DNA of 20,000 nt from an uncultured virus (IMG/VR IMGVR_UViG_3300012933_000168) (taxonomy: Duplodnaviria; Heunggongvirae; Uroviricota; Caudoviricetes), in IMG/VR virus record IMGVR_UViG_3300012933_000168. One strand, given 5' to 3'. Made by a program: the position numbers and the translations under genes. Below the pieces are notes generated by a model. That model saw only the letters and a list, made by a program, of their open reading frames with translations. It searched no databases and was not told the origin of the DNA. Of the stretch, positions 1,154 to 19,599 are shown piece after piece; position 1 is the stretch's first letter; each line of letters starts with the position of its first letter.

Positions 1154-2936
1154 AGTTCAAGGGCAACTCCATGCCCCACTTGGGTCGGATGCGCATACAC
1201 ATCTCGACGTATTCCACAGCAGTCTTAACTTCCTCGGTCTTGACGATACAAGCCACCGCGTCATGCACAGTCATCACAACGTGGTACTTCTTGGCAATCA
1301 TCAGCATTTGGTCGCCGATGATGATACGCGCTAGGGCTTGGCATACGTTTTCGATTACCTTCCCGCCGTAGATGCGGTTGGGGATAACGGCTCGGCCCTT
1401 CTTGGTGTCATACACAATCTCGGTTTTGCCTGTTTCCTCGTCGGCCTTCTGACGCAGGTTGGGGTAGCGGATATACAAGCCGTTGGGCAAGCGGATGCCG
1501 TCCTTACCTTCGATCTTCAAGATGCCGTCACGTCCTAACATTGTTAGCTGGCCCCTAAGAATCGCCTCCAGCGCCGTACCGGCTTCTTTCCACAGCTTCG
1601 TGATTCGTGGGTATGTAGCTCGATATGTGTCAATGATTCGTTTCGCCTCATCGAGCTCGACGATGACGCCGAAGTTCTTAAGCTGAGCTTGAAATTTCGC
1701 CGCGCCCATGCCGTACCCCGCCCCAAGAATCGTTGTCTTTCCAACAAAGCGCTCATCTTTCGATATATCCGCAACGTCCTTGCCGTAGATAGCCGATGCC
1801 ATGATTTTGTAAACGTCCTCGCCACGGTCAAATGCCTCCACTAAGTCGTCTTGCCCAGCTAGCCATGCTAGCGTACGGGCTTCAATTTGTGATGAGTCAG
1901 AGTCGATCATCAGATACCCCGCAGGTGCGAGGATAGATTTCTTCAGCGCTGACCCCCTCGGCAAGTTCTGAAGATTAAGTTTGTCATCGCCCCCCCATCG
2001 CCCAGTGTGGGCGGCGTAATAACGGAGGGGAACTGGCATGGCACCTCGCTGAGCAATCCCAATAAAACGTTCAGTTCTCGACTCCTCAATCGTAGATTTC
2101 GTACCCAGTCGGGCGGCGACGAGTGCTTGTACGGACGGATTCGGATGTTCGAGAAGTTCTTTGAACGCCTCGTCTGTCTTTGCGAAGGCATAGGTTTCCT
2201 TTCCAGTAGCAGGGCTCTTCTTCATCGGTGGCGCGACACCGAGTACCGTGAGTAGCTCGGCGAACTTGGGGTTGCTCATCAGCGTGTCTTTGTCGAAGTT
2301 CTCCAGCAGCTCAGCTTTGCGTTGCTGTTCTTTCAGCAGATGGACGCGCAACATACTCTCATCCAGTTGCAAGACTGGCTCGGTAAACATACGGATGGTC
2401 AGGTCGATCAAGCGCAACTCAGTCGGCGGGAAGTCTTGACTCATGCAGTTGAACAAGTCCCATGTCAGGCGCACGTCGTTCTTACAGTACTCACCATACT
2501 GGGCTAGCTGTTCCTTGGGGAAGTCAGTGCGGCGCAATCCCTTCGCATCGTTGACCTCAGTGCCCTTCTCGCCGATGCCGTAGAACTCCGCCAGAACCTT
2601 CAGGCTACCGCCTACGTTCGTACCGTGAAGAGCGCGGCCCATAGATAGCGTGTCAAGCCAACCCTTCGGCTTGATTTGGAAATGCTCGGTCAGGATGAAC
2701 CCGTCGAACATAGCGTTGTGCGCCAGCGCAAGGGAGTTCTCCCAATCGAATTGCTTGAGGAACGCATACGTACCGATGGAGTCACCTGTGTACCACTCAG
2801 GTTCACCGTCATTGACCTGCACAGCCACACCCACAACTTCAAAGCGTGGGTCGCGTACGTATTCCTCAGTAGTCTGTTTAGAGAAGCCAAGGTCGGCCCC
2901 ATACGCCGACTCAAAGTCAATAGTAATAATATCCAT
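1116..2936 (-). CDS. polA: phage DNA polymerase, family A (3'-5' exonuclease + polymerase, no 5'-3' exonuclease)
   Basis: ExoI DFES, ExoII HNAMFD, ExoIII YCKND; HTGRW; NLQNLP; motif A DSSQIEAR; motif B RFVGKTTILGAGYG; motif C VHDA. Confidence 0.96.
   Translation of the reverse strand: MDIITIDFESAYGADLGFSKQTTEEYVRDPRFEVVGVAVQVNDGEPEWYTGDSIGTYAFLKQFDWENSLALAHNAMFDGFILTEHFQIKPKGWLDTLSMGRALHGTNVGGSLKVLAEFYGIGEKGTEVNDAKGLRRTDFPKEQLAQYGEYCKNDVRLTWDLFNCMSQDFPPTELRLIDLTIRMFTEPVLQLDESMLRVHLLKEQQRKAELLENFDKDTLMSNPKFAELLTVLGVAPPMKKSPATGKETYAFAKTDEAFKELLEHPNPSVQALVAARLGTKSTIEESRTERFIGIAQRGAMPVPLRYYAAHTGRWGGDDKLNLQNLPRGSALKKSILAPAGYLMIDSDSSQIEARTLAWLAGQDDLVEAFDRGEDVYKIMASAIYGKDVADISKDERFVGKTTILGAGYGMGAAKFQAQLKNFGVIVELDEAKRIIDTYRATYPRITKLWKEAGTALEAILRGQLTMLGRDGILKIEGKDGIRLPNGLYIRYPNLRQKADEETGKTEIVYDTKKGRAVIPNRIYGGKVIENVCQALARIIIGDQMLMIAKKYHVVMTVHDAVACIVKTEEVKTAVEYVEMCMRIRPKWGMELPLNCESGYGESYGDC
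1535..1547. repeat. 13-bp palindrome CTAACATTGTTAG inside polA (encodes LTML)
   Basis: Exact match read from the sequence. Confidence 0.95.
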
Positions 2937-3424
2937 CAGTACGATTCCCCTCTAACAATTAAACTAATCACTCTTTGGCTTACATCGAATTTGTTCGCCA
3001 GTTGTTTTTGTGTGAGCCCATGCACCTCGTAAGCCCTGCGGATTTCCGCAGCTTGCTTGTTGGTCAGCTTTGCATTTGCATGATTCTCACCCTTGGGTTG
3101 CGCCCTACGCTTCTTAGCATAGGCGTCTAGTTGGTTGTCTGCGTACGAGCCAATGAAGAAATGCGTTGGGTTACAGCACTTGCGGTTGTCACACTTGTGC
3201 AGTACGTGGGCTTTCTCCTTCGAGTTAGTCGGCCTCGCTGGGTCTGCTACCAAATCGCTAAGCCAAGCGGCAACCCTGTGTGCCGTGTACGTCTTACCGT
3301 GCCACGCCACCGTACCGTAACCTGTGTTGTTACACGCACCCTGCCACTCCCAACACCCGTTGCGCTGACGCCTATCCCCTTGGACTCGCGCCCAAAAAGA
3401 TTCTGCTGTTTGCTTTTTTGCCAC
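2936..3424 (-). CDS. HNH (homing-type) endonuclease with C-terminal HTH
   Basis: CWEWQG...GYG...AHRVA...HKCDNRKCCNPTH...N; C-terminal KLT...IR...LTQKQLANKFDVSQRVISLIVRG HTH; GTG start behind AGGAG. Confidence 0.9.
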   Translation of the reverse strand: MAKKQTAESFWARVQGDRRQRNGCWEWQGACNNTGYGTVAWHGKTYTAHRVAAWLSDLVADPARPTNSKEKAHVLHKCDNRKCCNPTHFFIGSYADNQLDAYAKKRRAQPKGENHANAKLTNKQAAEIRRAYEVHGLTQKQLANKFDVSQRVISLIVRGESY

Positions 3425-3433
3425 GTTAGACTC

Positions 3434-3568
3434 CTAAAACGTATTCGTATCCAGTGTACCACCTTCTTTGATAGCCCACCAAATATCCACCGCTTTTTTA
3501 ACGCGCTCTTTGTCTACGCCCTGTTGCCATAGGTATTCCATGACGAGGGCAAGTTGCTCGGCGGTCAT
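3434..3568 (-). CDS. small hypothetical protein (44 aa, MTAEQLALVMEYLWQQG...)
   Basis: Translated by hand (below the ORF-track cutoff); ATGA-coupled to the upstream gene and fills the gap. Confidence 0.6.
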   Translation of the reverse strand: MTAEQLALVMEYLWQQGVDKERVKKAVDIWWAIKEGGTLDTNTF

Positions 3569-4062
3569 TTAAAAATTCCTGAAAGAAAACCGCCGCTGTT
3601 GGTTGTTATACCTGTTGAGTTTTGCGCGGCGTTTTGTATGGGATGGATTTGGCCGGGAGCGCCAATTTGTGCTGTTGTATATGTACCTGTGCTGTTCATC
3701 ATTTGATTCTGAATCATCGCCCTTTGTTGGGCTTGGTACATCTGCTGTTTCATCTTCAACCGCTCCATCTCAGCTTCACGTTCTTCCGCGCCGTCGTCAA
3801 AGATTTTCTCCATGACTTCCTTCTCCATGCGGGTGCGGTGGTACTTCTTCCATGCTTCGAGCAGTGCCTCTTTGTCGGCATCGTTCAGAAACCAGTAGGC
3901 GTATCTCTTACCCTCGTCGAGTCCAGCCAACCCGTAAAGAGCGCCAGCCGTTTCGCCAAACTTGGCCTTGTTGTATAGCTCCCCGTTGTAAACGTCAAAG
4001 TCTTCGGGGTGTGATTCCATCCGTGCAATCAGCACGGTCACTGCGTTAGATAGTTCGCTCAT
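3565..4062 (-). CDS. hypothetical protein, ARMESHPEDF family, with Q/M/T-rich tail
   Basis: 165-aa ORF with an N-terminus paralogous to the adjacent gene. Confidence 0.8.
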   Translation of the reverse strand: MSELSNAVTVLIARMESHPEDFDVYNGELYNKAKFGETAGALYGLAGLDEGKRYAYWFLNDADKEALLEAWKKYHRTRMEKEVMEKIFDDGAEEREAEMERLKMKQQMYQAQQRAMIQNQMMNSTGTYTTAQIGAPGQIHPIQNAAQNSTGITTNSGGFLSGIFK

Positions 4063-4418
4063 TTTGCTGGCCCGTTCATGCGTTTAATCATCTCCGCTTG
4101 TGCGGCGTTGATAATCATCTTCGTTGGGGGTTGGTACGTGTTCGCCATGAGGGTCTTCGTCACACTTTCGTCGGCGTACTCGTCTTCCGTTTCGTCAGGC
4201 ATGATTGTGGCTATCGCCTTATGCGTAATCTCCAAGCGACGAACCTTGGTCATGCCCGAATGGAGCGCGGCCTTCTCAGGCTCACTCATTACCTCGCGCA
4301 AGTTCTCGCTAAAAATCCAGCGCCACTTGCTGTTCGTCTCCCCCAAGCCAAAGAACTCTTCGGGGTGTGTTTCCATACGGGCCAAGATGATGCCCACGCC
4401 TTCGTTTACTTCACTCAT
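4059..4418 (-). CDS. hypothetical protein, ARMETHPEEF family (paralog of 3565..4062)
   Basis: Start moved to ATG 4418 (AGGAG SD at 4426-4430); similar N-terminus to its neighbour. Confidence 0.78.
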   Translation of the reverse strand: MSEVNEGVGIILARMETHPEEFFGLGETNSKWRWIFSENLREVMSEPEKAALHSGMTKVRRLEITHKAIATIMPDETEDEYADESVTKTLMANTYQPPTKMIINAAQAEMIKRMNGPAK

Positions 4419-4710
4419 TTCCAAACTCCTTGATGTACGCTTCAAAATTCTCTAGGTTCGATTCCCGAACCACCCACGCATCGCCTTCGGCTTTCTCAAT
4501 ATCTCGGATGTTCTTCTCTTGCAACGCTGTCGGTATACCTTTACCGGCTTTCGCTTCAACTGCTAAGAACTTGCCCTTGATACAACACAAGAAGTCAGGG
4601 ACTCCACTGTTGCCGTACCCCGTGCCCATCGGCATCGCGTAGTACACGCCGTGTTCTTTCAGAATCTTCTTTATCTTCTCTTTGACTTTCGCTTCGGGTG
4701 TTGATGCCAT
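4411..4710 (-). CDS. VRR-NUC domain nuclease (Holliday-junction resolvase-like)
   Basis: PEAKVKEKIKKIL...GVPDFLCC..GKFLAVEAKAGKG...LQ pattern. Confidence 0.88.
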   Translation of the reverse strand: MASTPEAKVKEKIKKILKEHGVYYAMPMGTGYGNSGVPDFLCCIKGKFLAVEAKAGKGIPTALQEKNIRDIEKAEGDAWVVRESNLENFEAYIKEFGNE

Positions 4711-4736
4711 GATACTCTCTAATTAGACTTTGTCAA
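4709..4736 (-). promoter_or_regulatory. possible sigma70 promoter (TTGACA-16 nt-TATCAT)
   Basis: Perfect -35 at 4731-4736, but the spacer is 16 nt and the -10 candidate overlaps the VRR-NUC ATG. Confidence 0.4.
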
Positions 4737-4741
4737 GAGGG

Positions 4742-4754
4742 CTAACATTGTTAG
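4742..4754. repeat. 13-bp palindrome, intergenic, extended by GGG/CCC arms (4739-4757)
   Basis: Exact match; 5 bp from a TTGACA. Confidence 0.95.
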
Positions 4755-4770
4755 CCCCCCGTGTTTTTAC

Positions 4771-5391
4771 TTAAACTTGGCCGCGCTCTTTCAAGATAGC
4801 CATACCTGCATACACGATAGCGCCGAACACTTCTTGCTCAAATGCTTCGCCTGTGCGGGTACTCGCGGCCTCTTCCAATTTCTTGGTGGCTTGGCCTGTT
4901 GCAAAACCACGACCGTGCATCTTGGTGTAGTGCGCCCAAGGTTGTTCCAAGAATGGAGTACGCGCACCGCCATGACGTTCGCCTTTACCGTGCATAGCTT
5001 GCTTGATCGCATCCATGAATACGTGGTACAGCGGGTGGTCTTCAACGCGGTCGGCTTGCGGTTCTTCCATTGTGATGCGCTCGACGTTCTCCATCAGCAT
5101 CTTGCCTGTCACGGGGTGCATACGTTGACGGCCTTTGGTCAGTTCGTAGATTCGCTCGGCCTCTTCCTTGAACGGCATCGCGGGTTCTTTGCTCGTGGTC
5201 GTAGTTACGTGCCTCCACTTCAACTGCTTCGGCACTTTCACGCTCAGCTTCTTGTCGTCGTGGCGGATAGCGTATACGTAAGCGGGGGTAATACCACACG
5301 CCTTAGCTACATCGACGGCGGTTGCCTTTGGGTGCGCCGCTTGGTATGCGCGGACTTTAGATGCTTTGCTCGGTTTAGTCGCTGTTGTCAT
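4771..5391 (-). CDS. protein with N-terminal HTH and a C-terminal phage helical domain (QAMHGKGERHG motif)
   Basis: ATAVDVAKACGITPAYVYAIR resembles an HTH; start at 5391 chosen from the GGAG SD (ORF track starts at 5421). Confidence 0.7.
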   Translation of the reverse strand: MTTATKPSKASKVRAYQAAHPKATAVDVAKACGITPAYVYAIRHDDKKLSVKVPKQLKWRHVTTTTSKEPAMPFKEEAERIYELTKGRQRMHPVTGKMLMENVERITMEEPQADRVEDHPLYHVFMDAIKQAMHGKGERHGGARTPFLEQPWAHYTKMHGRGFATGQATKKLEEAASTRTGEAFEQEVFGAIVYAGMAILKERGQV

Positions 5392-5392
5392 T

Positions 5393-5590
5393 TCAATATT
5401 CTCCAGTTTGGGTTTGTACATAGTTGGTTAGAACTTCTCGGATTTTGGCTTGCTTGTTGGGAAAGGTCTCGAAATACTCGATCACCTCTCGCGGCAAACG
5501 CAAGCTCGTATTAACAAAGGTCGGCTTCTTACCGGGACCGCGCCCTTGTCGTTTTTTCTCGGGTTTCAGATATTCAATTCCAGTTGTCAT
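5393..5590 (-). CDS. BrnA-antitoxin-like ribbon-helix-helix DNA-binding protein
   Basis: GRGPGKKP...TSLRLPREVIEYF...QAKIREVL resembles the BrnA/RHH pattern GRP..K...LRL..DV...F.....Q.RIN..L. Confidence 0.65.
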   Translation of the reverse strand: MTTGIEYLKPEKKRQGRGPGKKPTFVNTSLRLPREVIEYFETFPNKQAKIREVLTNYVQTQTGEY

Positions 5591-5700
5591 AGCAGTGCTT
5601 CCTCTTCATCAGGGAAAAAAGTTGTGTTTGAGTTTTTCGGAAAGAGTTTTGGATTGAGCCTTGTGAACGGCCACCAAGCGTTCAGCTCGGCCTGAGTCAA
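5587..5700 (-). CDS. possible small protein (37 aa, TTG start; ...AELNAWWPFTR...EEEALL)
   Basis: Its stop is ATGA-coupled to the RHH gene, but it overlaps the tail of 5609..5875. Confidence 0.4.
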   Translation of the reverse strand: MTQAELNAWWPFTRLNPKLFPKNSNTTFFPDEEEALL

Positions 5701-5875
5701 TCGGCGTGATGGCGATACGGACTTTGACGGGGAACAATGTTTCTCCGTTTGCTTGCGCCCACTCTTTAGCGGCTTTTCTCGCGTCGAACATGATGTAGCC
5801 GATACCTTCGTCAACCTTGACATAGTTTCCTTTCAGTGTGCGTAGTGTGTACTTGGTTACGTGTACTGTTTGCAT
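5609..5875 (-). CDS. hypothetical protein (88 aa)
   Basis: TAATG coupling with the upstream gene; GAGGT SD. Confidence 0.65.
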   Translation of the reverse strand: MQTVHVTKYTLRTLKGNYVKVDEGIGYIMFDARKAAKEWAQANGETLFPVKVRIAITPIDSGRAERLVAVHKAQSKTLSEKLKHNFFP

Positions 5876-6141: not shown

Positions 6142-6614
6142 TACATCTTCTCCTTGATAGGCCGCATCCGTTTGGCGCGGTACTCCTGCTCTACTATCTT
6201 CATCGCCAGCTCCATGTCACGCACCGTGGTGTTCTCCAGTTGTGCGTCGTGAATTTCCATGACTAGGTTCATAGCCTTGAGTTCCTCGGCCTTCAATATG
6301 AAGCGGCCACTCTCCACACCGCGTTTACCGACAGCGTGAAGTGCATCCAAGCCAGCCTTAATTTCGTCTTTCCAATCGTGGCCAAGCTCAGGGCGCAACA
6401 TGATGTACGCCTCACACATATTGAACGCGCCAATCAGTACGTCAATAGTCGCTACCGTTGCATCACCACGACGCAATATGTCCATCGCATCGTGGTTCTT
6501 GATTCGCAGGTCGGCACTCAGTGACACACTTGTAAACGGTTTCATGCCAGCCAGCACCCAGCTCACTGGGTCAGGGAACACACCCTTGGGGCGATACTTA
6601 GAACGCTTTCTCAT
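6141..6614 (-). CDS. hypothetical phage protein (157 aa, basic N-terminus MRKRSKYRPK)
   Basis: Coupled ORF on the coding strand. Confidence 0.8.
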   Translation of the reverse strand: MRKRSKYRPKGVFPDPVSWVLAGMKPFTSVSLSADLRIKNHDAMDILRRGDATVATIDVLIGAFNMCEAYIMLRPELGHDWKDEIKAGLDALHAVGKRGVESGRFILKAEELKAMNLVMEIHDAQLENTTVRDMELAMKIVEQEYRAKRMRPIKEKM

Positions 6615-9020: not shown

Positions 9021-9220
9021 ACCACTAGCTTCACCAATATGCCGATGACTAACAATGTTAGGGCGTAGAGAATAATGTCGTTGATAGTCGGCGCGGGGCG
9101 CTTGTGCGCAATCCACCATTCACCTAGGCGGTCTTGGGGGAACGCCTCTTCTAGTGTGCGTGGGTAGCATCGGGTTGTAGGCCAACCTTCAAATTTGGGG
9201 TTTGGTTTCTTCATCTTCAT
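9017..9220 (-). CDS. small membrane-anchored phage protein (TTRCYPRTLEEAFP motif + C-terminal TM)
   Basis: ORF track; hydrophobic C-terminus. Confidence 0.7.
   Translation of the reverse strand: MKMKKPNPKFEGWPTTRCYPRTLEEAFPQDRLGEWWIAHKRPAPTINDIILYALTLLVIGILVKLVV
9049..9061. repeat. 13-bp palindrome CTAACAATGTTAG (inverted centre), intragenic
   Basis: Exact match. Confidence 0.95.
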
Positions 9221-10022
9221 TCTCCAAAATCAACACAAAACTTTCATCATTAACTCGGCAACCTATACCAGTTACCATCGCTTCCTTCTCCACCAGCTTG
9301 AGCATACCTAGCTTGCCGCGTAGCTCGACGGGTAAAGTCACATCATCATACAGTTGTACATTGTCACGTATCTTAACAATATATTTGCTGTCTGCCAATA
9401 CCACCAATGCAGTTCTGTTGTTCTGAAACGCCTTAATAGTTTCGGCAATCGTCACCATGTCGGCTCGGACATCCTCTAACATTGTTAGGTGTTCCAGCAT
9501 AGCTGTATTGTGGTTGTGCTTCAGCTCCAAGATGTACTGACTCATGTTGGCTTTTGCCCACTTATACAAGTCGTTCTCAATCGGACGCTCATGCTCACGT
9601 TGCTTGCTTTGGTTGCGATAGCTTTGATTCTCCAGTACACCCTCGGCTACCACTAACGCTTTGTTGACACGCTCGGATAGATTCATCGGGCCGAATGTCT
9701 TCTTCACTCGCAGGTACGCTTTGTCTACCTTGTCGGTGTGGTATGCGTTCTTACGTGTGTTGTTAGCACCAATGCGGTCGTTACGCACAAACAGCTTCTG
9801 ACTACTGCCGTACCACTCAGAGCCGATATAGCCCAGCTCCTCACTACCATCTACCACACGGAATGTACGGAACCCCACCACCTCGACAGTCCATAGTGGA
9901 TGCTTGGTCGCCACTTCCCACGCCAGCATCTTGGCCTCGCCATGTAGCTGGTTCTCGTCAATCGGTTTCTCATTCTTACCCATACGCACGTTGGGCAACT
10001 TCATCAATTCAATAGCCATCAT
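9189..10022 (-). CDS. hypothetical phage protein (277 aa)
   Basis: Long ORF with GAGG SD; no motif recognised. Confidence 0.82.
   Translation of the reverse strand: MMAIELMKLPNVRMGKNEKPIDENQLHGEAKMLAWEVATKHPLWTVEVVGFRTFRVVDGSEELGYIGSEWYGSSQKLFVRNDRIGANNTRKNAYHTDKVDKAYLRVKKTFGPMNLSERVNKALVVAEGVLENQSYRNQSKQREHERPIENDLYKWAKANMSQYILELKHNHNTAMLEHLTMLEDVRADMVTIAETIKAFQNNRTALVVLADSKYIVKIRDNVQLYDDVTLPVELRGKLGMLKLVEKEAMVTGIGCRVNDESFVLILENEDEETKPQI
9476..9488. repeat. 13-bp palindrome, intragenic (encodes LTML)
   Basis: Exact match. Confidence 0.95.
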
Positions 10023-11268: not shown

Positions 11269-11729
11269 TTCATTTCTCCTTCAGGTTTCATATCTAACAA
11301 CTTCAACTGTCGTGCAATGTCGCACACTTCCTCTTTCACCCACTCGAACGTGCGGTAGGTATCTCTCATGTGATGGCTAATGTCTGTCTCGGTGTACTCC
11401 ATCAACGTAGCCACCAGCTTCGGGCTAAAGTCCCCTGCGTGTGAGCAGTCGAACCCAACCACCCACTCGTCTGTCTCCTTGTCTTTCTCCGAGTACGTCA
11501 GCCCACCATGCGCTTCAATACCCCTATCGTTGAGCCAGTCGTAGTTGAACCCGTACGCCTTGTGCCCCCTTGGTATAGCCACGTACCCGTTCAGGTGTCC
11601 GAGCGTTCCATGTCGCCACACTGTGCACTTGTACCCAGTCAGGTCATGTACCCACTCCTCGTTGTCAGGCTCGTGTTCCCACGGGCGGTCGCTTATCAGC
11701 AACTTCATCTTCTGTTCTGCATCTAACAT
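11265..11729 (-). CDS. conserved phage protein (GHLNGYV...HGGLTY...GFDCSHAGD family)
   Basis: Recognisable widespread phage motif set; the ATG lies inside a palindrome copy. Confidence 0.82.
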   Translation of the reverse strand: MLDAEQKMKLLISDRPWEHEPDNEEWVHDLTGYKCTVWRHGTLGHLNGYVAIPRGHKAYGFNYDWLNDRGIEAHGGLTYSEKDKETDEWVVGFDCSHAGDFSPKLVATLMEYTETDISHHMRDTYRTFEWVKEEVCDIARQLKLLDMKPEGEMK

Positions 11730-11735
11730 TGTTAG
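11723..11735. repeat. 13-bp palindrome at a stop/start junction
   Basis: Exact match; contains TAA (11732-11734) and ATG (11729). Confidence 0.95.
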
Positions 11736-12689: not shown

Positions 12690-12691
12690 GT

Positions 12692-13906
12692 TTAGACTTC
12701 GAGGTAGATTGTTTTACCGTTGTCGGACACTGCGCTTGTGTTGCCACCACTGATGACCCACATAGTCGGCGCTGTCCACTCGCTACCCCAGTTCGGTACG
12801 TAGCCGTCAGTCAGCACAATCACACACTCGGGCACGATGTTCTCGTCTTTCAGGTACTGAGATACACAGCTTGGGTCTGTACCACCACCGCCTCGTGGCT
12901 TGGTCGAGCTAACAATGTTAGATACATCACCACCCTCGTACTTCTCATGCCCTGCCACATGGCCGTCCCAGTAAATCAAGTCCACCACCTCGGGGCTGAC
13001 TTCCTCGGCGATACCCTGTACCTCGGATAAGAACTCGGCAAGCTCAGGCCCACCGATAGAACCCGATGTGTCGATAGCCACAACCAAGTGACCAACCTTC
13101 TCGCCAATCATGCTGGGCATATACATACCTGTGCTGAGGAATCGGCGGTTCACACGACGCCATGAGCTTGTGTCTTTGTTAGAACACGTAGCCTTAACGA
13201 AGTCGCGCAACACTTCACGCCAATCAATCTTGGGTGCAAGTAAGTCTTCCAGTTCACGGTCGAGCATCCCACCGCCTTTGCCAGCGTTCTTCTGATGTGC
13301 AATCAAGCCTTGACGAATCGCTTGGTCAATCTCACGCGCCAACTCTTTCTTCTCGTCCTCGGTCAGGTTCTCAGCGCCTTCCCAATCATGTTCATCGAAG
13401 CCGTCACCACCGCCACCGTTGGGGTCGTTCTTCTTCTCCTCTTTGAGAATGTCGTAGACCTGCTTGGTGTTCATGCCACGGAATCGTTCGTCAACCAAGC
13501 CCATGAAGTCACCCTTCTTAGCCTTGGGGTGTCCTGTGTCCTCGGCGTAGCGTGGCATAGCGATGACTGACTCGTTCGGGTCTAAGTCCTTGAGCATCAA
13601 GTTAATCACGTAGTCCATAGCTTGATTAGCCAACTGCGCGTCCTCGGTGTGCAACTTAGTCCACGTTGTCAGGTGGCGGTACATCTTGTGCCCAGCCTCA
13701 TGCGCAATCACAAATGCCAGTTCCCTGTCGCTCATCTTCTTAACGAACGCACGGCCATACATCTCGTCGCGTCCGTTGGTACACGCTGTCGGAATGTCAT
13801 CGCGTACATGGGTCTTGCCCACCATCATCACGCCTTGTAGTAGTGCGAACTTGGGGTTGCGCATTACTGTGATTTTTGCTTTCTGCAATTTACGTTCTTC
13901 TAACAT
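12692..13906 (-). CDS. DUF2201-like protein: N-terminal HExxH metallopeptidase-like domain + C-terminal vWA domain
   Basis: TACTNG, HEAGH, ANQAMDYVIN; MIDAS DTSGS, GGGGTD, LTDG. Confidence 0.9.
   Translation of the reverse strand: MLEERKLQKAKITVMRNPKFALLQGVMMVGKTHVRDDIPTACTNGRDEMYGRAFVKKMSDRELAFVIAHEAGHKMYRHLTTWTKLHTEDAQLANQAMDYVINLMLKDLDPNESVIAMPRYAEDTGHPKAKKGDFMGLVDERFRGMNTKQVYDILKEEKKNDPNGGGGDGFDEHDWEGAENLTEDEKKELAREIDQAIRQGLIAHQKNAGKGGGMLDRELEDLLAPKIDWREVLRDFVKATCSNKDTSSWRRVNRRFLSTGMYMPSMIGEKVGHLVVAIDTSGSIGGPELAEFLSEVQGIAEEVSPEVVDLIYWDGHVAGHEKYEGGDVSNIVSSTKPRGGGGTDPSCVSQYLKDENIVPECVIVLTDGYVPNWGSEWTAPTMWVISGGNTSAVSDNGKTIYLEV
12909..12921. repeat. 13-bp palindrome (inverted centre) inside the vWA domain (SNIVS)
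   Basis: Exact match. Confidence 0.95.
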
Positions 13907-13912
13907 TGTTAG
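13900..13912. repeat. 13-bp palindrome over the vWA gene start codon
   Basis: Exact match; ATG 13906 with AAGGAG directly upstream. Confidence 0.95.
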
Positions 13913-13920
13913 CTCCTTGT

Positions 13921-14518: not shown

Positions 14519-14862
14519 CTCGACTTCTGCTTGTATGCCCTTGCCAATACTTCAGCCTCGTTAATCAACATGAACAACGTAGCCTCCATCTGTGCAGGGT
14601 CGGATGTTTCCAGCAGTACCTCGCGCTTCTTTTTCGGTAGGTCGGTCTGCGTGTGTTGCGCTGTCGGTGTCTCTTGCTCCCACTTGACCAACACGCATCG
14701 GTACTCGGGGTGCAATGCGCTGTACAACATACGGCGCTCAATGTTTAGTTGATAGCCCCACATCATGCGGTTCAAGTACTTGAACATATCGTTGCACTTC
14801 TCCCATTCGAGCGGCCAGTCCATGTGCTTGTTCTTGTGGTTGTTCATCTGTGCATATAACAT
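14506..14862 (-). CDS. hypothetical protein (118 aa, MLYAQMNNHK...)
   Basis: Start reassigned to ATG 14862 inside the palindrome variant, 2 nt after the upstream TAA, with a GGAGAG SD. Confidence 0.72.
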   Translation of the reverse strand: MLYAQMNNHKNKHMDWPLEWEKCNDMFKYLNRMMWGYQLNIERRMLYSALHPEYRCVLVKWEQETPTAQHTQTDLPKKKREVLLETSDPAQMEATLFMLINEAEVLARAYKQKSSWIP

Positions 14863-14868
14863 TGTTAG
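14856..14868. repeat. palindrome variant ATAACATTGTTAG (1 mismatch) at a stop/start junction
   Basis: 12/13 match; TAA 14865-14867 and ATG 14862. Confidence 0.9.
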
Positions 14869-15068
14869 TCTCTCCACATCGTTAGCTTCTTGTACTCTTT
14901 CACCTGTCGGCGTACCTGTATGTGAATAGCCACAACCTCCGCCTCGTTGCCGAGTTGTTTTTGTAGGGCATCCACAACGTGTTTCCACTCCCCTGCTTGA
15001 GTGTGGCTATCCATAATCAACGTCGCCGCATCACGCACGAGTTGGTCGGTGTCAATCGTCACTAACAT
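14865..15068 (-). CDS. small hypothetical protein (67 aa) bounded by palindromes at both start and stop
   Basis: ATG in the 15062 copy and TAA in the 14856 copy. Confidence 0.72.
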   Translation of the reverse strand: MLVTIDTDQLVRDAATLIMDSHTQAGEWKHVVDALQKQLGNEAEVVAIHIQVRRQVKEYKKLTMWRD

Positions 15069-15074
15069 TGTTAG
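15062..15074. repeat. 13-bp palindrome over a start codon
   Basis: Exact match; ATG 15068. Confidence 0.95.
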
Positions 15075-15081
15075 TCTCCTA

Positions 15082-15099
15082 GGCGGGGTTTCCCCCGCC
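15082..15099 (-). other. GC-rich RNA hairpin with GAAA tetraloop (GGCGGGG-GAAA-CCCCGCC)
   Basis: Perfect 7-bp stem just after the AAA gene stop; no U-tract, so not a clear intrinsic terminator. Confidence 0.6.
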
Positions 15100-15106
15100 G
15101 TTCTCG

Positions 15107-16177
15107 TTACAGCAAGTCTTGGTTCTTAGCGACCCAGTCGGCGAACGCCTTAGCGCCGAACGCGATGGATTGTTTCGATGGTGTCTTAGCAATGTTGATT
15201 GCGAACACGGCTTGCCACTCTGCGTCGAAGCGTTCCAAGTACTCCATGAATGGGGCGATGTTGGTCTTGTCGATACGAGCGATTGCACCGAAGATAACGA
15301 TGGCACAAGCGCCAGGACTTGTCGGTACTTTCGTATGCTTAGGGTCTTTGATGGTGTCCTCCCATGATGGAAGTTGGTCAGAGAACTCGATGTACGCTTG
15401 CATATCACGAGCCGCCGCTTCACCAATCGCACCACTGAGCGCCGCGATAACAGAGTCAGAGTCATTCTGCTTACGGGTACTAACAATGTTAGATGCCGTT
15501 GCCAGTGAACGAGGAGACACGAACGCAACCTGTGGCTTCTTGGGGTTGAAGATGTACGGGTTGTCGCCTTGTCCTGCGTCGGTATAGCTAGCCATTGCGT
15601 GAGGGAATCGGTTAACCCACGCCAACACCTCAGCCGCGATGCCGTTGTTCATGCCCCACTCAATCCATTCCTCAGATGTTGGCTTGGCAATAGTCACGGG
15701 CACGATACGGTTCAAGCTGTGCGCCTTCATGTTGTCGCCCACACCATCGGTCGATAAGTTACCAGTCAGGAAACAGATTGTGTCCTTGGGCAATGGGATG
15801 TCACCGAGTCGTGGGTTTGCCTTCTCAAGCATGGGGTGCAACATATTCTTAACTGGGTCAGCGCCTTTGCTGAACTCGTCAAGCATGATGACCATTGGCT
15901 TGCCTGTATGAATACCGAAACGTGCGTTGGGGTAGTAGCGGGTCGTCTTAGTCTCGTGGTCAATCACGGGCATTGCAATGTCGCCCAAGTCCATGTTCGG
16001 TACGTCGATGTACGCATGGTCGTAGCCTAGTGGTGCGGCGATTGCTTCTAGCAGAGAAGACTTACCAATTCCGGGCTCACCTCGTAGCATGAAGCGGGTA
16101 CTTGGGTTGGTGCGAATCAGGTTCGCGGCTTGCTTCAATGTGATGGTCTTACCAAATTTAACTTCTGACATTTTCAT
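15107..16177 (-). CDS. MoxR/AAA_5-like AAA+ ATPase
   Basis: Walker A GEPGIGKS, Walker B IMLDE, sensor TGN, R-finger SLNR, SPRS sensor 2. Confidence 0.9.
   Translation of the reverse strand: MKMSEVKFGKTITLKQAANLIRTNPSTRFMLRGEPGIGKSSLLEAIAAPLGYDHAYIDVPNMDLGDIAMPVIDHETKTTRYYPNARFGIHTGKPMVIMLDEFSKGADPVKNMLHPMLEKANPRLGDIPLPKDTICFLTGNLSTDGVGDNMKAHSLNRIVPVTIAKPTSEEWIEWGMNNGIAAEVLAWVNRFPHAMASYTDAGQGDNPYIFNPKKPQVAFVSPRSLATASNIVSTRKQNDSDSVIAALSGAIGEAAARDMQAYIEFSDQLPSWEDTIKDPKHTKVPTSPGACAIVIFGAIARIDKTNIAPFMEYLERFDAEWQAVFAINIAKTPSKQSIAFGAKAFADWVAKNQDLL
15480..15492. repeat. 13-bp palindrome (inverted centre) inside the AAA gene (SNIVS)
   Basis: Exact match. Confidence 0.95.
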
Positions 16178-16219
16178 TTCCTTCGTTGATTACTGCTAAC
16201 GCAGTTGTTATCTCTATGC

Positions 16220-16232
16220 CTAACATTGTTAG
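16220..16232. repeat. 13-bp palindrome in the AAA operon 5' leader (extends to 17 bp, 16218-16234)
   Basis: Exact match GCCTAACATTGTTAGGC. Confidence 0.95.
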
Positions 16233-16285
16233 GCGACTCGTTTAAGTTCACTTGCTGGTGGGCGATAGTTATTCGCCAAGCCTTT

Positions 16286-16314
16286 ATTGTATCACAAATA
16301 CTTGACAATGTCAA
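16286..16314 (-). promoter_or_regulatory. sigma70-type promoter TTGACA-17 nt-TACAAT driving the AAA/vWA operon
   Basis: -35 at 16309-16314 and -10 at 16286-16291 with exact 17-nt spacing, in the largest intergenic gap. Confidence 0.82.
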
Positions 16315-16326
16315 GACCTTTGCTCC

Positions 16327-16674
16327 TCAATTCCTACCTTTGCTCTCGCTAACATTGTTAGGTTGTTCGTACCTGTTGAACTCCTCAGCCCACCATGCGT
16401 GTTCTAAGAAGAATTGGTTCTTGTGTTTCGGATATACCCTGCGTAGGCTAGTCACAGCACTCCGCATCAAGTCCTCTACATTCAGCATCACTCGGCGGCA
16501 GTCTTGCAACTGCTCGGGTGTCGTGTCGGGGTGACGCATCAACTTGAGCACACAGCTATCAGCCTTGGCCTTGTACTGCATAGTCTCTCGCCATATCTGC
16601 TTACACCTAACCAACTTCTCAGTCGGCGTAGTTGTATCTCGTGGCATCCCTGTTGGTGTGTTGGTATCTAACAT
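16327..16674 (-). CDS. hypothetical protein (115 aa)
   Basis: ATG inside palindrome 16668; a second palindrome lies near the 3' end. Confidence 0.72.
   Translation of the reverse strand: MLDTNTPTGMPRDTTTPTEKLVRCKQIWRETMQYKAKADSCVLKLMRHPDTTPEQLQDCRRVMLNVEDLMRSAVTSLRRVYPKHKNQFFLEHAWWAEEFNRYEQPNNVSESKGRN
16349..16361. repeat. 13-bp palindrome about 35 bp upstream of the -35 box
   Basis: Exact match. Confidence 0.95.
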
Positions 16675-16680
16675 TGTTAG
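16668..16680. repeat. 13-bp palindrome at a stop/start junction
   Basis: Exact match; TAA 16677-16679 and ATG 16674. Confidence 0.95.
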
Positions 16681-16865
16681 AGCCCATGCTTCTTCTTGAA
16701 CCTGTCGAACTGCCCAAAGATTCCCTCTCGCTCCTCGGGGTGCATGAACAGTATCTTGAGCATCACGCCTAAGCTATTCGCCTTCTCCCTCTCACGGAAG
16801 TAGAAGATAGTCGCGCCCACCGCCCAGCCCAGCAGGAAACATTCCGCATCACTCAGTCCAAACAT
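16677..16865 (-). CDS. small protein with N-terminal hydrophobic segment (62 aa)
   Basis: GGAGG SD; the TAA lies inside palindrome 16668. Confidence 0.7.
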   Translation of the reverse strand: MFGLSDAECFLLGWAVGATIFYFREREKANSLGVMLKILFMHPEEREGIFGQFDRFKKKHGL

Positions 16866-16866
16866 A

Positions 16867-17883
16867 TCAATCCTCCTCAGTCATTACGTAGTCGGCATAC
16901 TTGTGCGTAGGTACTTTGCCCTCGGGCAACGCCACCTTCTTGAACACCTTGTCGCTGAACATCTTGAACAGAATCCTGTCCAACACCTTCTCGAATTGGT
17001 CAACACCCAACGTCACCTGTGACTCCATGCTGTCGCGCCAATACAAGCTCTGTTCCTGAACAAACAGAATGTTGAACGCAATCCAATAGTTTTGGTGGCG
17101 TGCGTTGTCATCTTGGTCATTCCGTACTAGGTCGAAGAACTCAGCGGTTGCCTGTCGGTAGTTACTCCACGCCTCATCCTTGTCCTCGGGTCGGTAGTAC
17201 TTGGGCTTCTCGGTTATCTTCCACTTGTTGCCCACATCGGGTCGGCATCCGCCATTTACATCCTGAGACTTGCCAAACACCTCAATCAATTCCCCATACG
17301 TTGTTTTGACCACAGAGAAACCCTCACGCCCCCAAACGCCTTGAATCTCCTCACCCTTGAGCTTGATGACTCCAGCCAAGTAGTCACGGAATTGGCTCAC
17401 GGACTTCCTAACATTGTTAGAGTCCTTGCGGCTCACTCGGTAGTCGTAAAGCGTCTGCGTTTCTTTTGGCAACCATCCGCCGTTTGCCGTGCGAACTAAT
17501 GCCAGTTCCCCCTTGGCGGGTAGCATCGCCTTCGCGTTCGTACCTGAGAAGCCCAAGACCACCTGACCCTTGACTCGGTACGCACCCACGCCACTCAGCA
17601 CTCGGCTAATGAATTGGCACGTCGATGCACTTGGCCAGTTGTCTATGTTGATGATGACCTCATCCTCCACCGTGAACTTAATCACGGGCGTTTGGTACAG
17701 CACACACTCGATTGCGTTTGTCCATACGTTCTTACGGATAGAGTAGGTGTCCACGTCACGACGCTCACCCAGTGGTCGCTTGTCCTCAGCCCTGCCCTTG
17801 ATTGGCTTGCTGTTGTCGAACTTCTTTACTGCCTCGGCGTAGTCGCGTACCTTCGGCACTCTCATTACTGTTGCGTATCCCAT
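16867..17883 (-). CDS. hypothetical phage protein (338 aa)
   Basis: Long ORF with AGGAG SD; no motif recognised. Confidence 0.85.
   Translation of the reverse strand: MGYATVMRVPKVRDYAEAVKKFDNSKPIKGRAEDKRPLGERRDVDTYSIRKNVWTNAIECVLYQTPVIKFTVEDEVIINIDNWPSASTCQFISRVLSGVGAYRVKGQVVLGFSGTNAKAMLPAKGELALVRTANGGWLPKETQTLYDYRVSRKDSNNVRKSVSQFRDYLAGVIKLKGEEIQGVWGREGFSVVKTTYGELIEVFGKSQDVNGGCRPDVGNKWKITEKPKYYRPEDKDEAWSNYRQATAEFFDLVRNDQDDNARHQNYWIAFNILFVQEQSLYWRDSMESQVTLGVDQFEKVLDRILFKMFSDKVFKKVALPEGKVPTHKYADYVMTEED
17408..17420. repeat. 13-bp palindrome, intragenic (SNNVR)
   Basis: Exact match. Confidence 0.95.
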
Positions 17884-17887
17884 TTCA

Positions 17888-18085
17888 TTACTCCTTTAAA
17901 AGTTTCTCGTATTTCTCTACCCACTCAATCGCTTGCTCGTTCGTTGGTATGCCCTCGGCGACGTACTCCCACTTGTGCCCGTTGGCAAACCTCCGAGCTT
18001 GTGGCTCCCATTGGTACCTGCGCTTGACCATCAACTCTCCGTCATGCCACCTCACGATGCACCAGTCAGGCTCCCTCTCTAACAT
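17888..18085 (-). CDS. small protein, putative paralog family (65 aa)
   Basis: ATG in palindrome 18079; WCIVR...EYVAEG...A...KLLKE. Confidence 0.72.
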   Translation of the reverse strand: MLEREPDWCIVRWHDGELMVKRRYQWEPQARRFANGHKWEYVAEGIPTNEQAIEWVEKYEKLLKE

Positions 18086-18091
18086 TGTTAG
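18079..18091. repeat. 13-bp palindrome over a start codon
   Basis: Exact match; ATG 18085. Confidence 0.95.
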
Positions 18092-18098
18092 CCCTCCT

Positions 18099-18386
18099 TC
18101 ATGGGAACATATCCCAAGCAGATGTGCGGTCGACTAACGTGTGGTCTGCTACCGCGTCGTAATCCACCTCGAAGCGCATCATGTAGTCATGCCGCGCCAG
18201 CTTCGCCATTGCAATCAGCCTCTCCTTGTCTGTGCCCTCGGCTACTATCTCGGCGGTGTCCTCGGTCTCGCCTCTGTCTTTGAGTTGGTTCCAACACCGA
18301 ACCGTTGTCTTGCTGGCTAGCCGTTTCAGGTACACCCTCGCATCTCCATCGGAGAAACTCACCAGCACATAATTCACCTTCTTCAT
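18099..18386 (-). CDS. small protein, putative paralog family (95 aa)
   Basis: YVLV...EIVAEGTDKERLIAMAKL; ATGA-coupled. Confidence 0.72.
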   Translation of the reverse strand: MKKVNYVLVSFSDGDARVYLKRLASKTTVRCWNQLKDRGETEDTAEIVAEGTDKERLIAMAKLARHDYMMRFEVDYDAVADHTLVDRTSAWDMFP

Positions 18387-18577
18387 ACGCTAGCCAGTGC
18401 AACCGTTGCCCTGTCTCGTAGTTGCATCATCAGCCCTTGCGGGTTGCGCCCTAGCTTCGCGGCCAGTTGGTACATGGCGTTGCGCTTGGCATTGTTCGGG
18501 TTGGTTGCTGTCGTGTACATCGTCAGGATTTCCCCTGCGTTGTTGACTGTCACCTTGAACTTGTACTTCTCTAACAT
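18383..18577 (-). CDS. small hypothetical protein (64 aa)
   Basis: ATG in palindrome 18571. Confidence 0.72.
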   Translation of the reverse strand: MLEKYKFKVTVNNAGEILTMYTTATNPNNAKRNAMYQLAAKLGRNPQGLMMQLRDRATVALASV

Positions 18578-18583
18578 TGTTAG
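18571..18583. repeat. 13-bp palindrome at a stop/start junction
   Basis: Exact match; TAA 18580-18582 and ATG 18577. Confidence 0.95.
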
Positions 18584-18780
18584 GTCTCCTCTGTTAATGC
18601 TTTGAATCTCATAATCTCCATCGTGTCGTCGCTCTCGGCGATAACCTCGGCTTCGTATGCCCCACGATAGAACGCTTTCTTTTGGAACTCATTCCATCTC
18701 TGCCTGTCCAGCATGAAACAATTCCCGTCCACCTTCATGCGTATCAGCACCCAAAACTTAGGCTTCTCGTGGTTGTCCAT
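18580..18780 (-). CDS. small protein, putative paralog family (66 aa)
   Basis: WVLIR...EVIAESDD...; TAA in palindrome 18571. Confidence 0.72.
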   Translation of the reverse strand: MDNHEKPKFWVLIRMKVDGNCFMLDRQRWNEFQKKAFYRGAYEAEVIAESDDTMEIMRFKALTEET

Positions 18781-18782
18781 GA

Positions 18783-18971
18783 TTACTCTCCCTTCGCCAG
18801 TTGCACGGCTTTCTTCGCCAGCTCGTAGTCGTCGGTCTCCATCATCACTTCGCGCTTATACAAGTCCGAGTCCTTGTGTGCTTGGTTTAGCTCCCACTGC
18901 CCTCTCGTGCGTATGAAGAACTCCACGTCCCCCACCGCACTTGTGCGTCGGTACACCACCCAATCCTTCAC
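18783..18971 (-). CDS. small protein, putative paralog family (~62 aa)
   Basis: Probable GTGA-coupled start at 18971 (ORF track starts at 19040); WVVYR...EVMMETDDYELAKKAVQL. Confidence 0.65.
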   Translation of the reverse strand: MKDWVVYRRTSAVGDVEFFIRTRGQWELNQAHKDSDLYKREVMMETDDYELAKKAVQLAKGE

Positions 18972-19165
18972 ACCCTTGGCCCTCGTACAAAGCTCCGCAA
19001 CTTCACCATCTGTATAGTGGCGTAGGTGTATCTGCGGCATAAGTCGGCGTAGTCGGCTTCGCTTGTGTCCTCGTTCATGGCTATCTCGGTGAACTGCCTC
19101 GTCATGTCTGCGTACGCCGCCTCCATGTTGAGGTACTCGGTAATCTGCTCTGCGTTAAATTTCAT
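18968..19165 (-). CDS. small hypothetical protein (65 aa)
   Basis: AAGGAG SD; coupled ORF. Confidence 0.65.
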   Translation of the reverse strand: MKFNAEQITEYLNMEAAYADMTRQFTEIAMNEDTSEADYADLCRRYTYATIQMVKLRSFVRGPRV

Positions 19166-19358
19166 CTTCGTTCTCCTTCGGTTCGTTCGCTAACTCTGTT
19201 AGGTTGATTGCATCTACTAGCGTATGCCCTCGACTAACAAACTCGCATTTGGTGTTGGGTGTCTCTTGCACGTAGTTGTCCCATGTAATGTCTCGGATGT
19301 ACTCCAGCAGTCGTCTTGCATACCCTGTTCGGTAAATCACGTACTCGGCTTCATCCAT
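19155..19358 (-). CDS. small protein, putative paralog family (67 aa)
   Basis: YVIYR...EFVSRGHT..DA..L..L. Confidence 0.7.
   Translation of the reverse strand: MDEAEYVIYRTGYARRLLEYIRDITWDNYVQETPNTKCEFVSRGHTLVDAINLTELANEPKENEDEI
19190..19202. repeat. degenerate copy CTAACTCTGTTAG (5-bp arms intact)
   Basis: 11/13 match. Confidence 0.5.
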
Positions 19359-19593
19359 CCTCTTGCTCCTTCATTAGTTTGAGCATCCCTCGCAGGACTT
19401 TCTCGGGCTGGTCGTCACACAAAATAGTGTGTGCTCTTATCCACGGCTTAGTAAGCAGGGGCTTGTACTCCATCCCGTACCCGCTGAACGGCCACTCATA
19501 CTTGACCAACGCATACTTGTACTTCTTGCGCCTCTTTTCCTGCTCACGCAGACTCTTATCTTTCCCCGCACCTTCGCTGCTTTTATCTAACAT
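19351..19593 (-). CDS. small protein, putative paralog family (80 aa, MLDKSSE...)
   Basis: Start reassigned to ATG 19593 inside palindrome 19587, with a GAGGAG SD. Confidence 0.7.
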   Translation of the reverse strand: MLDKSSEGAGKDKSLREQEKRRKKYKYALVKYEWPFSGYGMEYKPLLTKPWIRAHTILCDDQPEKVLRGMLKLMKEQEDG

Positions 19594-19599
19594 TGTTAG
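19587..19599. repeat. 13-bp palindrome at a stop/start junction
   Basis: Exact match; TAA 19596-19598 and ATG 19593. Confidence 0.95.

Follow-up and report, generated by a model that had tools for sequence, protein, structure and literature searches.

A clade-wide array of symmetric 13-bp sites in the early arm of uncultured phages, with the first early protein as its candidate regulator

Temperate mycobacteriophages of Cluster A carry stoperators, more than 20 asymmetric 13-bp sites that are oriented with respect to transcription and are bound by the immunity repressor (gp71 in phage L5). The C1 operators of phage P1 are also dispersed and asymmetric, and the O_B sites of KorB on the IncP plasmid RK2 are 13-bp palindromes, 12 in number, that act both near to and far from promoters. 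Cluster O mycobacteriophages are said to hold dozens of dispersed copies of a 17-bp dyad-symmetric repeat. Here we analyse a stretch of 20,000 nucleotides (nt) from an uncultured virus of the Caudoviricetes (IMG/VR record IMGVR_UViG_3300012933_000168), referred to below as the window, in which the 13-bp palindrome CTAACAWTGTTAG is repeated 16 times without a mismatch. The array is real, strongly selected and clade-wide, and consists of symmetric sites with discrete, switchable spellings that differ in the spacer between the half-sites (1, 2 or 3 nt; classes N1, N2 and N3) or in the half-site itself (TGACA in place of TAACA; class D). We tentatively propose that the palindromes are double-stranded DNA operators of gpE1, the putatively dimeric first early protein, and that they control early transcription, a reading that we hold to be a serious possibility somewhat short of probable.

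By function, the array stands nearest to the Cluster A stoperators, the dispersed P1 C1 operators and the RK2 KorB sites, and it is a member of none of these systems because its sites are symmetric, the phage appears to be virulent, the candidate binder belongs to a new family and the sequences differ. Like the stoperators, the sites are 13 bp long, numerous and dispersed in transcribed regions, often at gene junctions, and their spelling goes with the family of the candidate regulator, with exceptions and few independent transitions. Unlike the stoperators, they are true palindromes used in both orientations: of 600 N1 sites, 335 have A and 245 have T at the centre on the coding strand (65 A and 53 T in the ‘other intergenic’ subset), so the stoperator-like character suggested in the original prediction does not extend to orientation. 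They also keep to one arm, and conserved coding sequence contains some of them. Four near-complete relatives yielded no tyrosine or serine recombinase and no integrase; the clade appears to be virulent, and its candidate binder is a first early protein that does not look like a helix–turn–helix (HTH) protein. With P1 C1 and RK2 KorB the array shares a dozen or more dispersed sites for one regulator (here a candidate); it differs in sequence, and neither a ParB/KorB- nor a C1-type Pfam domain was found in the 54 open reading frames (ORFs) of the window, nor a ParB-type domain in gpE1. The Cluster O repeats differ from it in sequence, host phylum and distribution, the present array being marked by its restriction to the early arm, its spacing classes and its candidate binder. 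A literature search on the core string returned primers or unrelated matches only, and one on phage, palindrome and operator gave nothing pertinent among the matches listed.

Our recount placed the perfect copies at exactly the 16 coordinates of the original prediction, 2 of them in the first 9 kb and 14 between 9049 and 19599, the uneven spread that it had described. In 200 dinucleotide-preserving shuffles the mean count was 0.01 and the maximum 1, and 16 was never reached. A search of the window allowing up to two mismatches recovered both reported variants, at 14856 (one mismatch, ATAACATTGTTAG) and 19190 (two mismatches, CTAACTCTGTTAG), and no others, giving 18 sites where 0.40 are expected; because mismatched copies are so few, the motif family is unusually sharp. 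A gene caller based on codon usage and trained on long ORFs from related loci places all 45 genes of the window on the minus strand. In that direction the sequence of 13 copies out of 16 is CTAACAATGTTAG, in which both a stop (TAA) and a start (ATG) occur. Across 31 non-redundant loci (477 kb) there are 349 perfect, 77 one-mismatch and 12 two-mismatch copies, and the changes in the one-mismatch forms fall mostly on the outermost C/G or on the centre, which leaves TAACA-N-TGTTA as the invariant core. Copies free of coding constraint are longer: of 120 unique intergenic sites in related loci, 86 form the 15-bp palindrome C-CTAACAWTGTTAG-G. No pairing covariation that would extend a hairpin beyond this 15-mer was found among the related-locus sites.

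The closest full relative of the window is a 64,157-bp IMG/VR record (G002; about 84% DNA identity) with a 127-bp end repeat, in which a structural arm on one strand (terminase, portal, capsid and a 2001-amino-acid (aa) DarB-like protein) diverges from an early and replication arm on the other. The window matches 44.4–62.1 kb of this genome, that is, the early arm minus its first ~2 kb, and on this comparison represents the early and replication arm of what appears to be a ~64-kb freshwater phage; DNA runs containing parts of the window (share no higher than 0.31) come from metagenomes labelled freshwater or aquatic, and no RNA run was listed for it. Scanning IMG/VR with a pattern of GGAGN and the motif gave 60 loci, 45 of which hold 4–17 copies. 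Five relatives of 52–64 kb carry 12–16 copies each, with none of the reversed-pattern control, and most of their copies lie within 10–17 kb of the early arm. All 12 copies of G005 and all 13 of G006 are in that arm, and G002, G003 and G004 have one or two outliers each, one of those in G002 sitting at a convergent junction just 5′ of the arm’s final terminator. What had been put forward as a genome-wide system is, in these five genomes, confined almost wholly to the early arm.

A second sample was gathered independently of the motif, through the ATPase gene of the early arm (308 IMG/VR matches, of which the best 80 were kept as alignment A1). Just 46 of these best 80 of 308 relatives have at least three perfect 13-mers. 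The others are not free of sites: they carry 10–20 copies of TAACA-NN-TGTTA (N2) or, in two cases, TAACA-NNN-TGTTA (N3), and the two loci nearest to the window by ATPase (L084 and L085, 97–98% identical) carry CTGACA-NN-TGTCAG (D). By class, the 82 ATPase-collected or reference loci comprise 42 N1, 23 N2, 2 N3, 2 D and 6 mixed loci, and 7 with few sites; further scans added other D genomes and an N3 genome of 61 kb that has 16 sites. The original prediction would have been undone by a motif that close relatives fail to conserve. They conserve it as a system, and it is the exact spelling that varies, with three sister spellings.

The ATPase gene (15107..16177, minus strand) shows how interior sites are kept. 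Its copy at 15480..15492 lies in the second reading frame at codon 230 and encodes part of the peptide ASNIVS, and ASNIV(R/S) is invariant in nearly all rows of the alignment. The codons that create a site there, TCTAACATTGTTAG, are used in 41 of 44 N1-dominant and 9 of 25 N2-dominant genomes, and in none of the two D and two N3 genomes. Genomes that have no site at this place use synonymous codons, for example TCC AAC ATC GTC or TCG AAC ATT GTC CGG, and in L084 and L085 the site is erased by synonymous changes. Judged from these alignments, selection acts on the nucleotides, with codon choice maintaining the interior sites against synonymous drift.

Other sites have changed class without moving. 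Inside the gene for a DUF2201/von Willebrand factor A (VWA) protein, the copy at 12909..12921 (second frame, codon ~330, peptide SNIVS) reads CTAACA-T-TGTTAG in the window and CTGACA-TT-TGTCAG (CTGACATTTGTCAG) in L080, L084 and L085. Both half-sites and the spacer have changed, an adjacent 1-nt deletion restores the frame, and the peptide passes from SNIVSS to SDICQT. The N1 site at the start of the MazG-like gene of the window (11723..11735) corresponds to an N2-type site in L084 and to a half-and-half hybrid in L080. These two conversions indicate that sites are re-spelled in place to fit a specificity held at the level of the genome. At the DUF2201/VWA start codon, which the copy at 13900..13912 contains directly 3′ of AAGGAG, L084 and L080 have a dismantled N1 site and, 21 nt upstream, a D site.

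The placement of sites around promoters is also regular. The coding strand of the 82 loci holds 186 unique strong sigma70-like promoters, 155 of which have a site at most 150 nt away, and between about −60 and +30 there are almost no sites (6 site positions). A site lies 40–92 nt past the −10 element of 96 promoters, most commonly at 56–62 nt, and 40–118 nt upstream of 51; 14 promoters have sites on both sides, and the helical phasing of these 14 bracketing pairs, 111–163 bp apart, follows no pattern. The ATPase promoter of the window (16314..16286, minus strand; a strong sigma70-like TTGACA-17-TACAAT with TG) is bracketed in this way. The copy at 16220..16232, in the 5′ untranslated region (5′UTR) of the ATPase gene, is centred ~60 nt downstream of the end of the −10, and that at 16349..16361, in the second frame near the end of a 115-aa ORF, is centred ~70 nt upstream of it. 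Overall, the sites occupy 5′UTRs ~55 nt past sigma70-like promoters, stop/start junctions, positions beside terminators and the interiors of conserved genes. Simple promoter occlusion accounts less well than a roadblock or loop for sites that are clear of the polymerase footprint yet lie near +45 to +55.

Our candidate for the protein that reads the sites is gpE1, a product of ~165–180 aa encoded by the first gene of the early arm (27–542, minus strand, in G002), just beyond the right end of the window. It occurs as two homologous families, f18 and f24 (hhalign probability 97%, E 6.5e-11). Of the loci in which 6 kb or more precede the ATPase, 40 in all, f18 is found in 23 of class N1, and f24 in 12 of class N2 and 1 of class D. 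An N3 genome encodes a third, diverged gpE1 (27% identical), and D genomes have two distinct f24 sub-types. One of the 40 loci, L136, has almost no sites and no gpE1, with the universal early families 0, 1, 2, 3, 5, 8 and 10 all present. The gpE1 gene is itself bracketed by sites, one upstream of its promoter, often one in its 5′UTR and one or two after its stop codon. In L110 there are two paralogous copies, both f18 (5279-5854 and 6538-7029), each with its own promoter-and-palindrome unit. In the pair G002 and L084, whose ATPases are near-identical, several other small proteins differ too.

An AlphaFold2 model of gpE1 (predicted local distance difference test (pLDDT) 77.5) is all-helical: four helices make up the N-domain, and a disordered acidic linker leads to a C-terminal helical hairpin. 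The helix at residues 80–101 (NPSxxWxRVRK) is conserved. Modelled in two copies, gpE1 scores 0.60 where the best of three controls scores 0.00, through a symmetric interface formed by residues 13–42 and 64–87; the runs agree in at least 67% of contacts, with a partner pLDDT of at least 67. This passes the mark applied, which is reached by 20 of 30 proteins solved as one-chain pairs and by 1 of 23 solved as single chains. The model supports a two-fold symmetric homodimer. All 309 homologues of gpE1 are hypothetical metagenomic proteins, and in the Atlas it falls in unnamed viral clusters only, the nearest named one, DUF3102 at 0.83, being only a lead.

Two further proteins were considered as binders and set aside. 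A ribbon–helix–helix protein of G002 (L064:3014-3511, equivalent to 63014-63511, minus strand, 166 aa; Pfam E 4e-4, just above the cut-off), encoded by the next large ORF of the early arm after the first gene, belongs to a family present in only 4 of the 82 loci and so does not serve as a general binder. The HTH tail of the HNH endonuclease at 2936-3424 was the one DNA-binding candidate that Pfam and PHROGs returned from the 54 window ORFs, and its gene is not conserved in the clade tables.

Several observations weigh against gpE1 as the reader of these sites. Two of the 40 loci (L080 and L087) and a further genome, L101, combine f24 with mostly N1 sites, and L153, again one of the 40, has 6 N1 sites and a non-homologous first protein (hhalign probability 0.1). 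N1 and N2 spellings coexist in several genomes, which is awkward for a rigid dimer, and the spacer of the site upstream of the gpE1 promoter varies among N2 genomes. The link between class and family is confounded by descent: on the ATPase tree the gpE1 family changes 6 times and the spacing class 4 times, and because only 2 independent pairs fall on well-supported branches (6 on all branches), a sign test cannot reach significance. No recognisable DNA-binding fold emerged for gpE1, which matched no Pfam or PHROGs family above the cut-off and gave 0 matches in a PDB profile search, a best Foldseek E value of 1.1 and a best VIA Z score of 6.2, a value that is noise for helical models. Many sites adjoin or contain ribosome-binding sites and start codons, which suits an RNA operator equally well, and a bacterial genome that encodes no gpE1 homologue carries 21 copies of the palindrome; we return to both below.

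With these points weighed, the suggestion in the original prediction that a dimeric protein binds along the early region remains the best-supported account, on comparative grounds: the conservation of the motif, its confinement to the early arm, the upkeep of sites by codon choice, the independence of the half-sites and the symmetric gpE1 homodimer model. Under our proposal, a strong host-type promoter would direct immediate synthesis of gpE1; strong promoters of this kind, sigma70-like, are present in the early arm. The protein would then occupy 12–20 sites across the first 10–17 kb of the arm, ~55 nt downstream or ~60–90 nt upstream of early promoters, at junctions, at the flanks of terminators and inside genes. 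Such occupancy would turn down or gate the traffic of host RNA polymerase through the early genes, that of gpE1 included, as a roadblock and perhaps through looping. Binding to DNA, the identity of the binder and an effect on repression or timing are each putative steps drawn from sequence comparison.

Alternatively, gpE1 or another phage protein might read the palindromes in early messenger RNA, either as a hairpin or as a motif in single-stranded form, and so repress translation or alter message stability or processing. T4 RegA and the MS2 coat protein act on asymmetric, RNA-only operators at initiation regions, overlapping the AUG, and our sites resemble these in being a short sequence or hairpin that overlaps the AUG of several early messages. 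Sites fall in 5′UTRs a few nt before the Shine–Dalgarno sequence or contain the start codon itself (48 of 450 unique N1 sites, 103 of 284 unique N2 sites and 7 of the 16 window copies). Spacers of 1, 2 and 3 nt, equivalent to hairpin loops of 3, 4 and 5 nt, coexist, at times in one genome; in some cases a copy lies at the tip of a terminator-like hairpin or comes after a stable hairpin with a GNRA loop; and the centre of the N2 class is A-rich on the coding strand (AA 245 versus TT 49). However, this last ratio is merely 29:17 in ‘other intergenic’ N2 sites, near the compositional skew, and unlike the RegA and MS2 operators, 402 of the 450 unique N1 sites are not at starts, with positionally conserved copies deep in genes. 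The core hairpin is marginal as RNA, the bare hairpin giving −1.6 to −2.9 kcal/mol in five of the eight contexts folded, no better than shuffles, and only G/C-extended copies fold well (−9.3 and −16.3 kcal/mol). Within genomes the outer flanks are complementary in 797 of 1020 cases against 797.9 expected: they vary independently, there is no compensatory covariation at the outer pair, and the half-sites are conserved as sequence rather than as pairing. Some sites also precede the first early promoter or directly follow terminators, places in which sense RNA would be expected least. We therefore regard action at the DNA level as more likely and an RNA operator as rather unlikely.

A related comparison concerns the N4-type hairpin promoters, which have a stem of 5–7 bp and a 3-nt loop and are read by a virion RNA polymerase. 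Stem and loop size fit here, and a set of 12–20 copies facing both ways does not resemble promoters. A PHROGs scan of 19 of the 42 G002 proteins of at least 140 aa showed no RNA polymerase; a search with PF00940 (T7-type RNA polymerase) matched nothing anywhere, the controls included, and is uninformative.

Sites for a host factor form another reading, in which a host transcription factor or nucleoid protein recognises the palindrome, the phage couples early expression to the state of the host or soaks up the factor, and the spelling classes reflect different hosts. The original prediction had allowed for a match to a host regulator site, and one bacterial metagenome-assembled genome (MAG) does hold the palindrome in numbers. 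Our scan of 185,579 species genomes with the 15-mer gave, among the matches listed, scattered singletons across phyla, except in a 3.8-Mb MAG titled Dinoroseobacter sp. (G007), which has 21 exact copies of CTAACAWTGTTAG on 12 contigs (loci L438-L453), with a control count of 0. These sites are intergenic and mostly paired, 60–113 bp apart around a hairpin (L438:2005-2115, L439:1965-2100, L440:2055-2185, and L442:1955-2075 and 6900-7000). The MAG shows no gpE1 homologue (E up to 1), no DNA similarity to the window and no sites with an NN spacer. Its element is longer than that of the phages, TTAACrCG-CCTAACAWTGTTAGG-CGyGTTAA, whereas the phage flanks are free beyond ±1. Some of its flanks read TTAA-N7-TTAAC, which resembles a CtrA box.

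The intergenic, often paired copies in a genome that encodes no gpE1 homologue speak for a host factor, as do the exceptions to the mapping of gpE1 family onto class. The motif is absent from 80 other genomes of the family of this MAG and from 13 of 14 others of its genus, the fourteenth having a single copy, so it is not a conserved regulon there. Moreover, phages with 98–99% identical ATPases differ in spelling, which under a host factor would need host jumps together with wholesale rewriting, and the locus with almost no sites, L136, also has no gpE1. The chromosome-organizing sites matS (bound by MatP; consensus GTGACRNYGTCAC), SlmA and Noc are palindromes of 12–14 bp whose 20–70 dispersed copies mark one chromosomal domain in coding and non-coding DNA. 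The phage array differs from them in its 64-kb genome, its promoter geometry and its sequence, CTAACAWTGTTAG, and neither a MatP-like Pfam domain in the window ORFs nor any Pfam match for gpE1 was found; the array of the MAG is closer to this kind than the phage array is. On balance, we judge host-factor sites unlikely.

Very improbable, finally, is a role in recombination or mobility, with the palindromes as cassette borders, miniature mobile elements or targets of a nuclease: many copies do lie exactly on stop/start junctions of an early arm that is highly mosaic among relatives, the window encodes an HNH endonuclease, a Hjc-like protein and a PD-(D/E)XK nuclease, copies are near-perfect with few degenerate ones, as from a spreading element or a stringent nuclease, and pairs that flank a terminator occur in phage and MAG alike, but 13–15 bp is short for homologous exchange, copies persist at the same codon of conserved genes across 66–84% DNA identity, where they are re-spelled in place rather than inserted, and the fixed promoter geometry is unexpected for cassette borders. 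Promoter-early stem-loop (PeSL) cassettes of T4-type phages, in which an early promoter and a stem-loop flank ORFs of hyperplastic regions, breakpoints fall at the repeats and shuffling has been proposed, are similar in that our sites also accompany promoters and terminators.

Seven copies in the window contain a start codon (11723, 13900, 15062, 16668, 18079, 18571 and 19587), six of them with a GGAG-type sequence directly 5′, and at 11723, 16668, 18571 and 19587 the TAA of the site doubles as the stop of the preceding gene. Thus the junction copy at 11723..11735, with GGAGG just upstream, ends ORF 11732-12112 and starts the MazG-like gene (11265-11729); that at 16668..16680 ends ORF 16677-16865 and starts ORF 16327-16674; and that at 18571..18583 ends ORF 18580-18780 and starts ORF 18383-18577. 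The copy at 19587..19599 ends ORF 19596-19814 and supplies an in-frame ATG after GAGGAGA, probably the true start of ORF 19351-19626. At 15062..15074 the site contains the ATG of ORF 14865-15068, after a GNRA-loop hairpin and AGGAGA, and at 18079..18091 it contains the start codon of ORF 17888-18085, 3′ of GAAGGAGGG.

Copies within genes use two of the three reading frames, the third, which would read TAA, being used by none. In frame are the copy in the PolA gene (1535..1547, codon 465 of 606, peptide LTML), which is specific to the window, the G002 orthologue having no site there, and that at codon 180 of a conserved 277-aa gene (9476..9488), which is present in L080 and absent from G002. 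Besides those at 12909, 15480 and 16349, second-frame copies lie in a 113-aa ORF (9049..9061; centre T on the coding strand, kept in G002) and at codon 156 of a conserved 338-aa gene (17408..17420; present in L080, absent from G002, L084 and L085). Two copies are between genes, that at 16220 and one at 4742..4754 that sits in a G/C-extended hairpin (RNA fold −16.3 kcal/mol), is kept in G002 and ends 5 bp upstream of the −35 of a strong sigma70-like promoter (4709..4736, minus strand; TTGACA-16-TATCAT, 11 of 12 matches). Of the two variants, that at 14856..14868 has an intact TAACA-N-TGTTA core and an orthologous copy kept in L085 and L080, and that at 19190..19202 is weak and possibly due to chance.

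The −35 of the ATPase promoter lies inside a separate 15-bp palindrome, CTTGACATTGTCAAG (16301-16315), with half-site TGACA and spacer 1. TGACAnTGTCA occurs once in the window, at 16303; the pattern TGACA-N-TGTCA is present once in 14 of the 82 loci, the window among them, and twice in one further locus. It may be a conserved feature of the ATPase promoter or a weak site of D-type half-sites. Other sequence elements recur near promoters and terminators. Related loci have, upstream of the first early gene (L094:4100-4300, L090:6100-6300), a conserved box ATTATTGTTCACG between the upstream palindrome and the −35, and a small hairpin (CATGCAAAC...GCATC), also conserved, comes after the transcript start of this promoter, the first early one. 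Just 3′ of units made of a terminator and a palindrome near the start of the early arm (L013 ~4720-4760, L022 ~11195-11240), (A/T)ACCAGTTC(C/T)C recurs, followed by a GGTCGGC-like sequence. Between a stop codon and the palindrome of the next gene there are often stable G/C hairpins that have no T-run and whose loops are of the GAAA, GCAA or TTCG type, in the window (15075-15100) and in many relatives; their layout resembles that of RNA 3′-end protectors or processing signals. In the window, Rfam 15 gave 0 matches at the gathering score on either strand.

A PHROGs and Pfam scan of the 54 ORFs identified several genes of the window, and many small ORFs have no family. Besides the MazG-like gene, they include a family A DNA polymerase (1116..2936, minus strand; 36–38% identical to the polymerases of Rhizobium and Pseudomonas podophages), a PD-(D/E)XK exonuclease (262-933), a Hjc-like protein (4411-4710) and an HNH endonuclease of the His-Me finger type with a C-terminal HTH (2936-3424), whose gene abuts the polymerase gene directly upstream, a position like that of homing endonucleases. 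The AAA (MoxR-like) ATPase, the clade marker, and the DUF2201_N/DUF2201 protein (12692..13906, minus strand; metallopeptidase-like and VWA-like) are a conserved gene pair of the clade, and the palindrome in each encodes SNIVS. Megablast of the window against GenBank phages gave no match, and cultured relatives by terminase are only 49–57% identical, phage DSL-LC04 having 0 core motifs. The 2001-aa protein that closes the structural arm of G002 (L062:11712-17717) shows a match (PHROG 10089, E 2.4e-71) to the C-terminal region of DarB-like antirestriction and giant virion proteins.

A few temperate phages are the only ones in which arrays of regulator sites within transcription units have been studied well, and here such an array marks an abundant, apparently virulent freshwater clade with 308 IMG/VR relatives. 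Its features lend themselves to experiment: a candidate regulator of no known fold, symmetric sites inside conserved genes, and discrete classes defined by A or G in the half-site and by spacers of 1, 2 and 3 nt. The natural site conversions and the class table supply ready predictions for gel shifts. A more speculative extension, which we think quite unlikely, is that gpE1 and its sites form a fast-evolving lock-and-key identity system in which each spelling (TAACA or TGACA; spacer 1, 2 or 3) is a specificity group. If so, the protein of a resident phage would shut the early arm of a later phage of the same group and not that of other groups. Competition among co-circulating relatives would then drive the re-spelling of whole arms, even in conserved genes, a form of heteroimmunity without lysogeny, and the 21 copies in the bacterial MAG would be a host decoy or sensor, or a host system that lends specificity. 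More generally, the identical palindrome in one bacterial genome may point to a host or to an interplay between phage and host. If confirmed, gpE1 and its sites would provide a compact, orthogonal regulator–operator pair and a marker that sorts these phages into regulatory groups.

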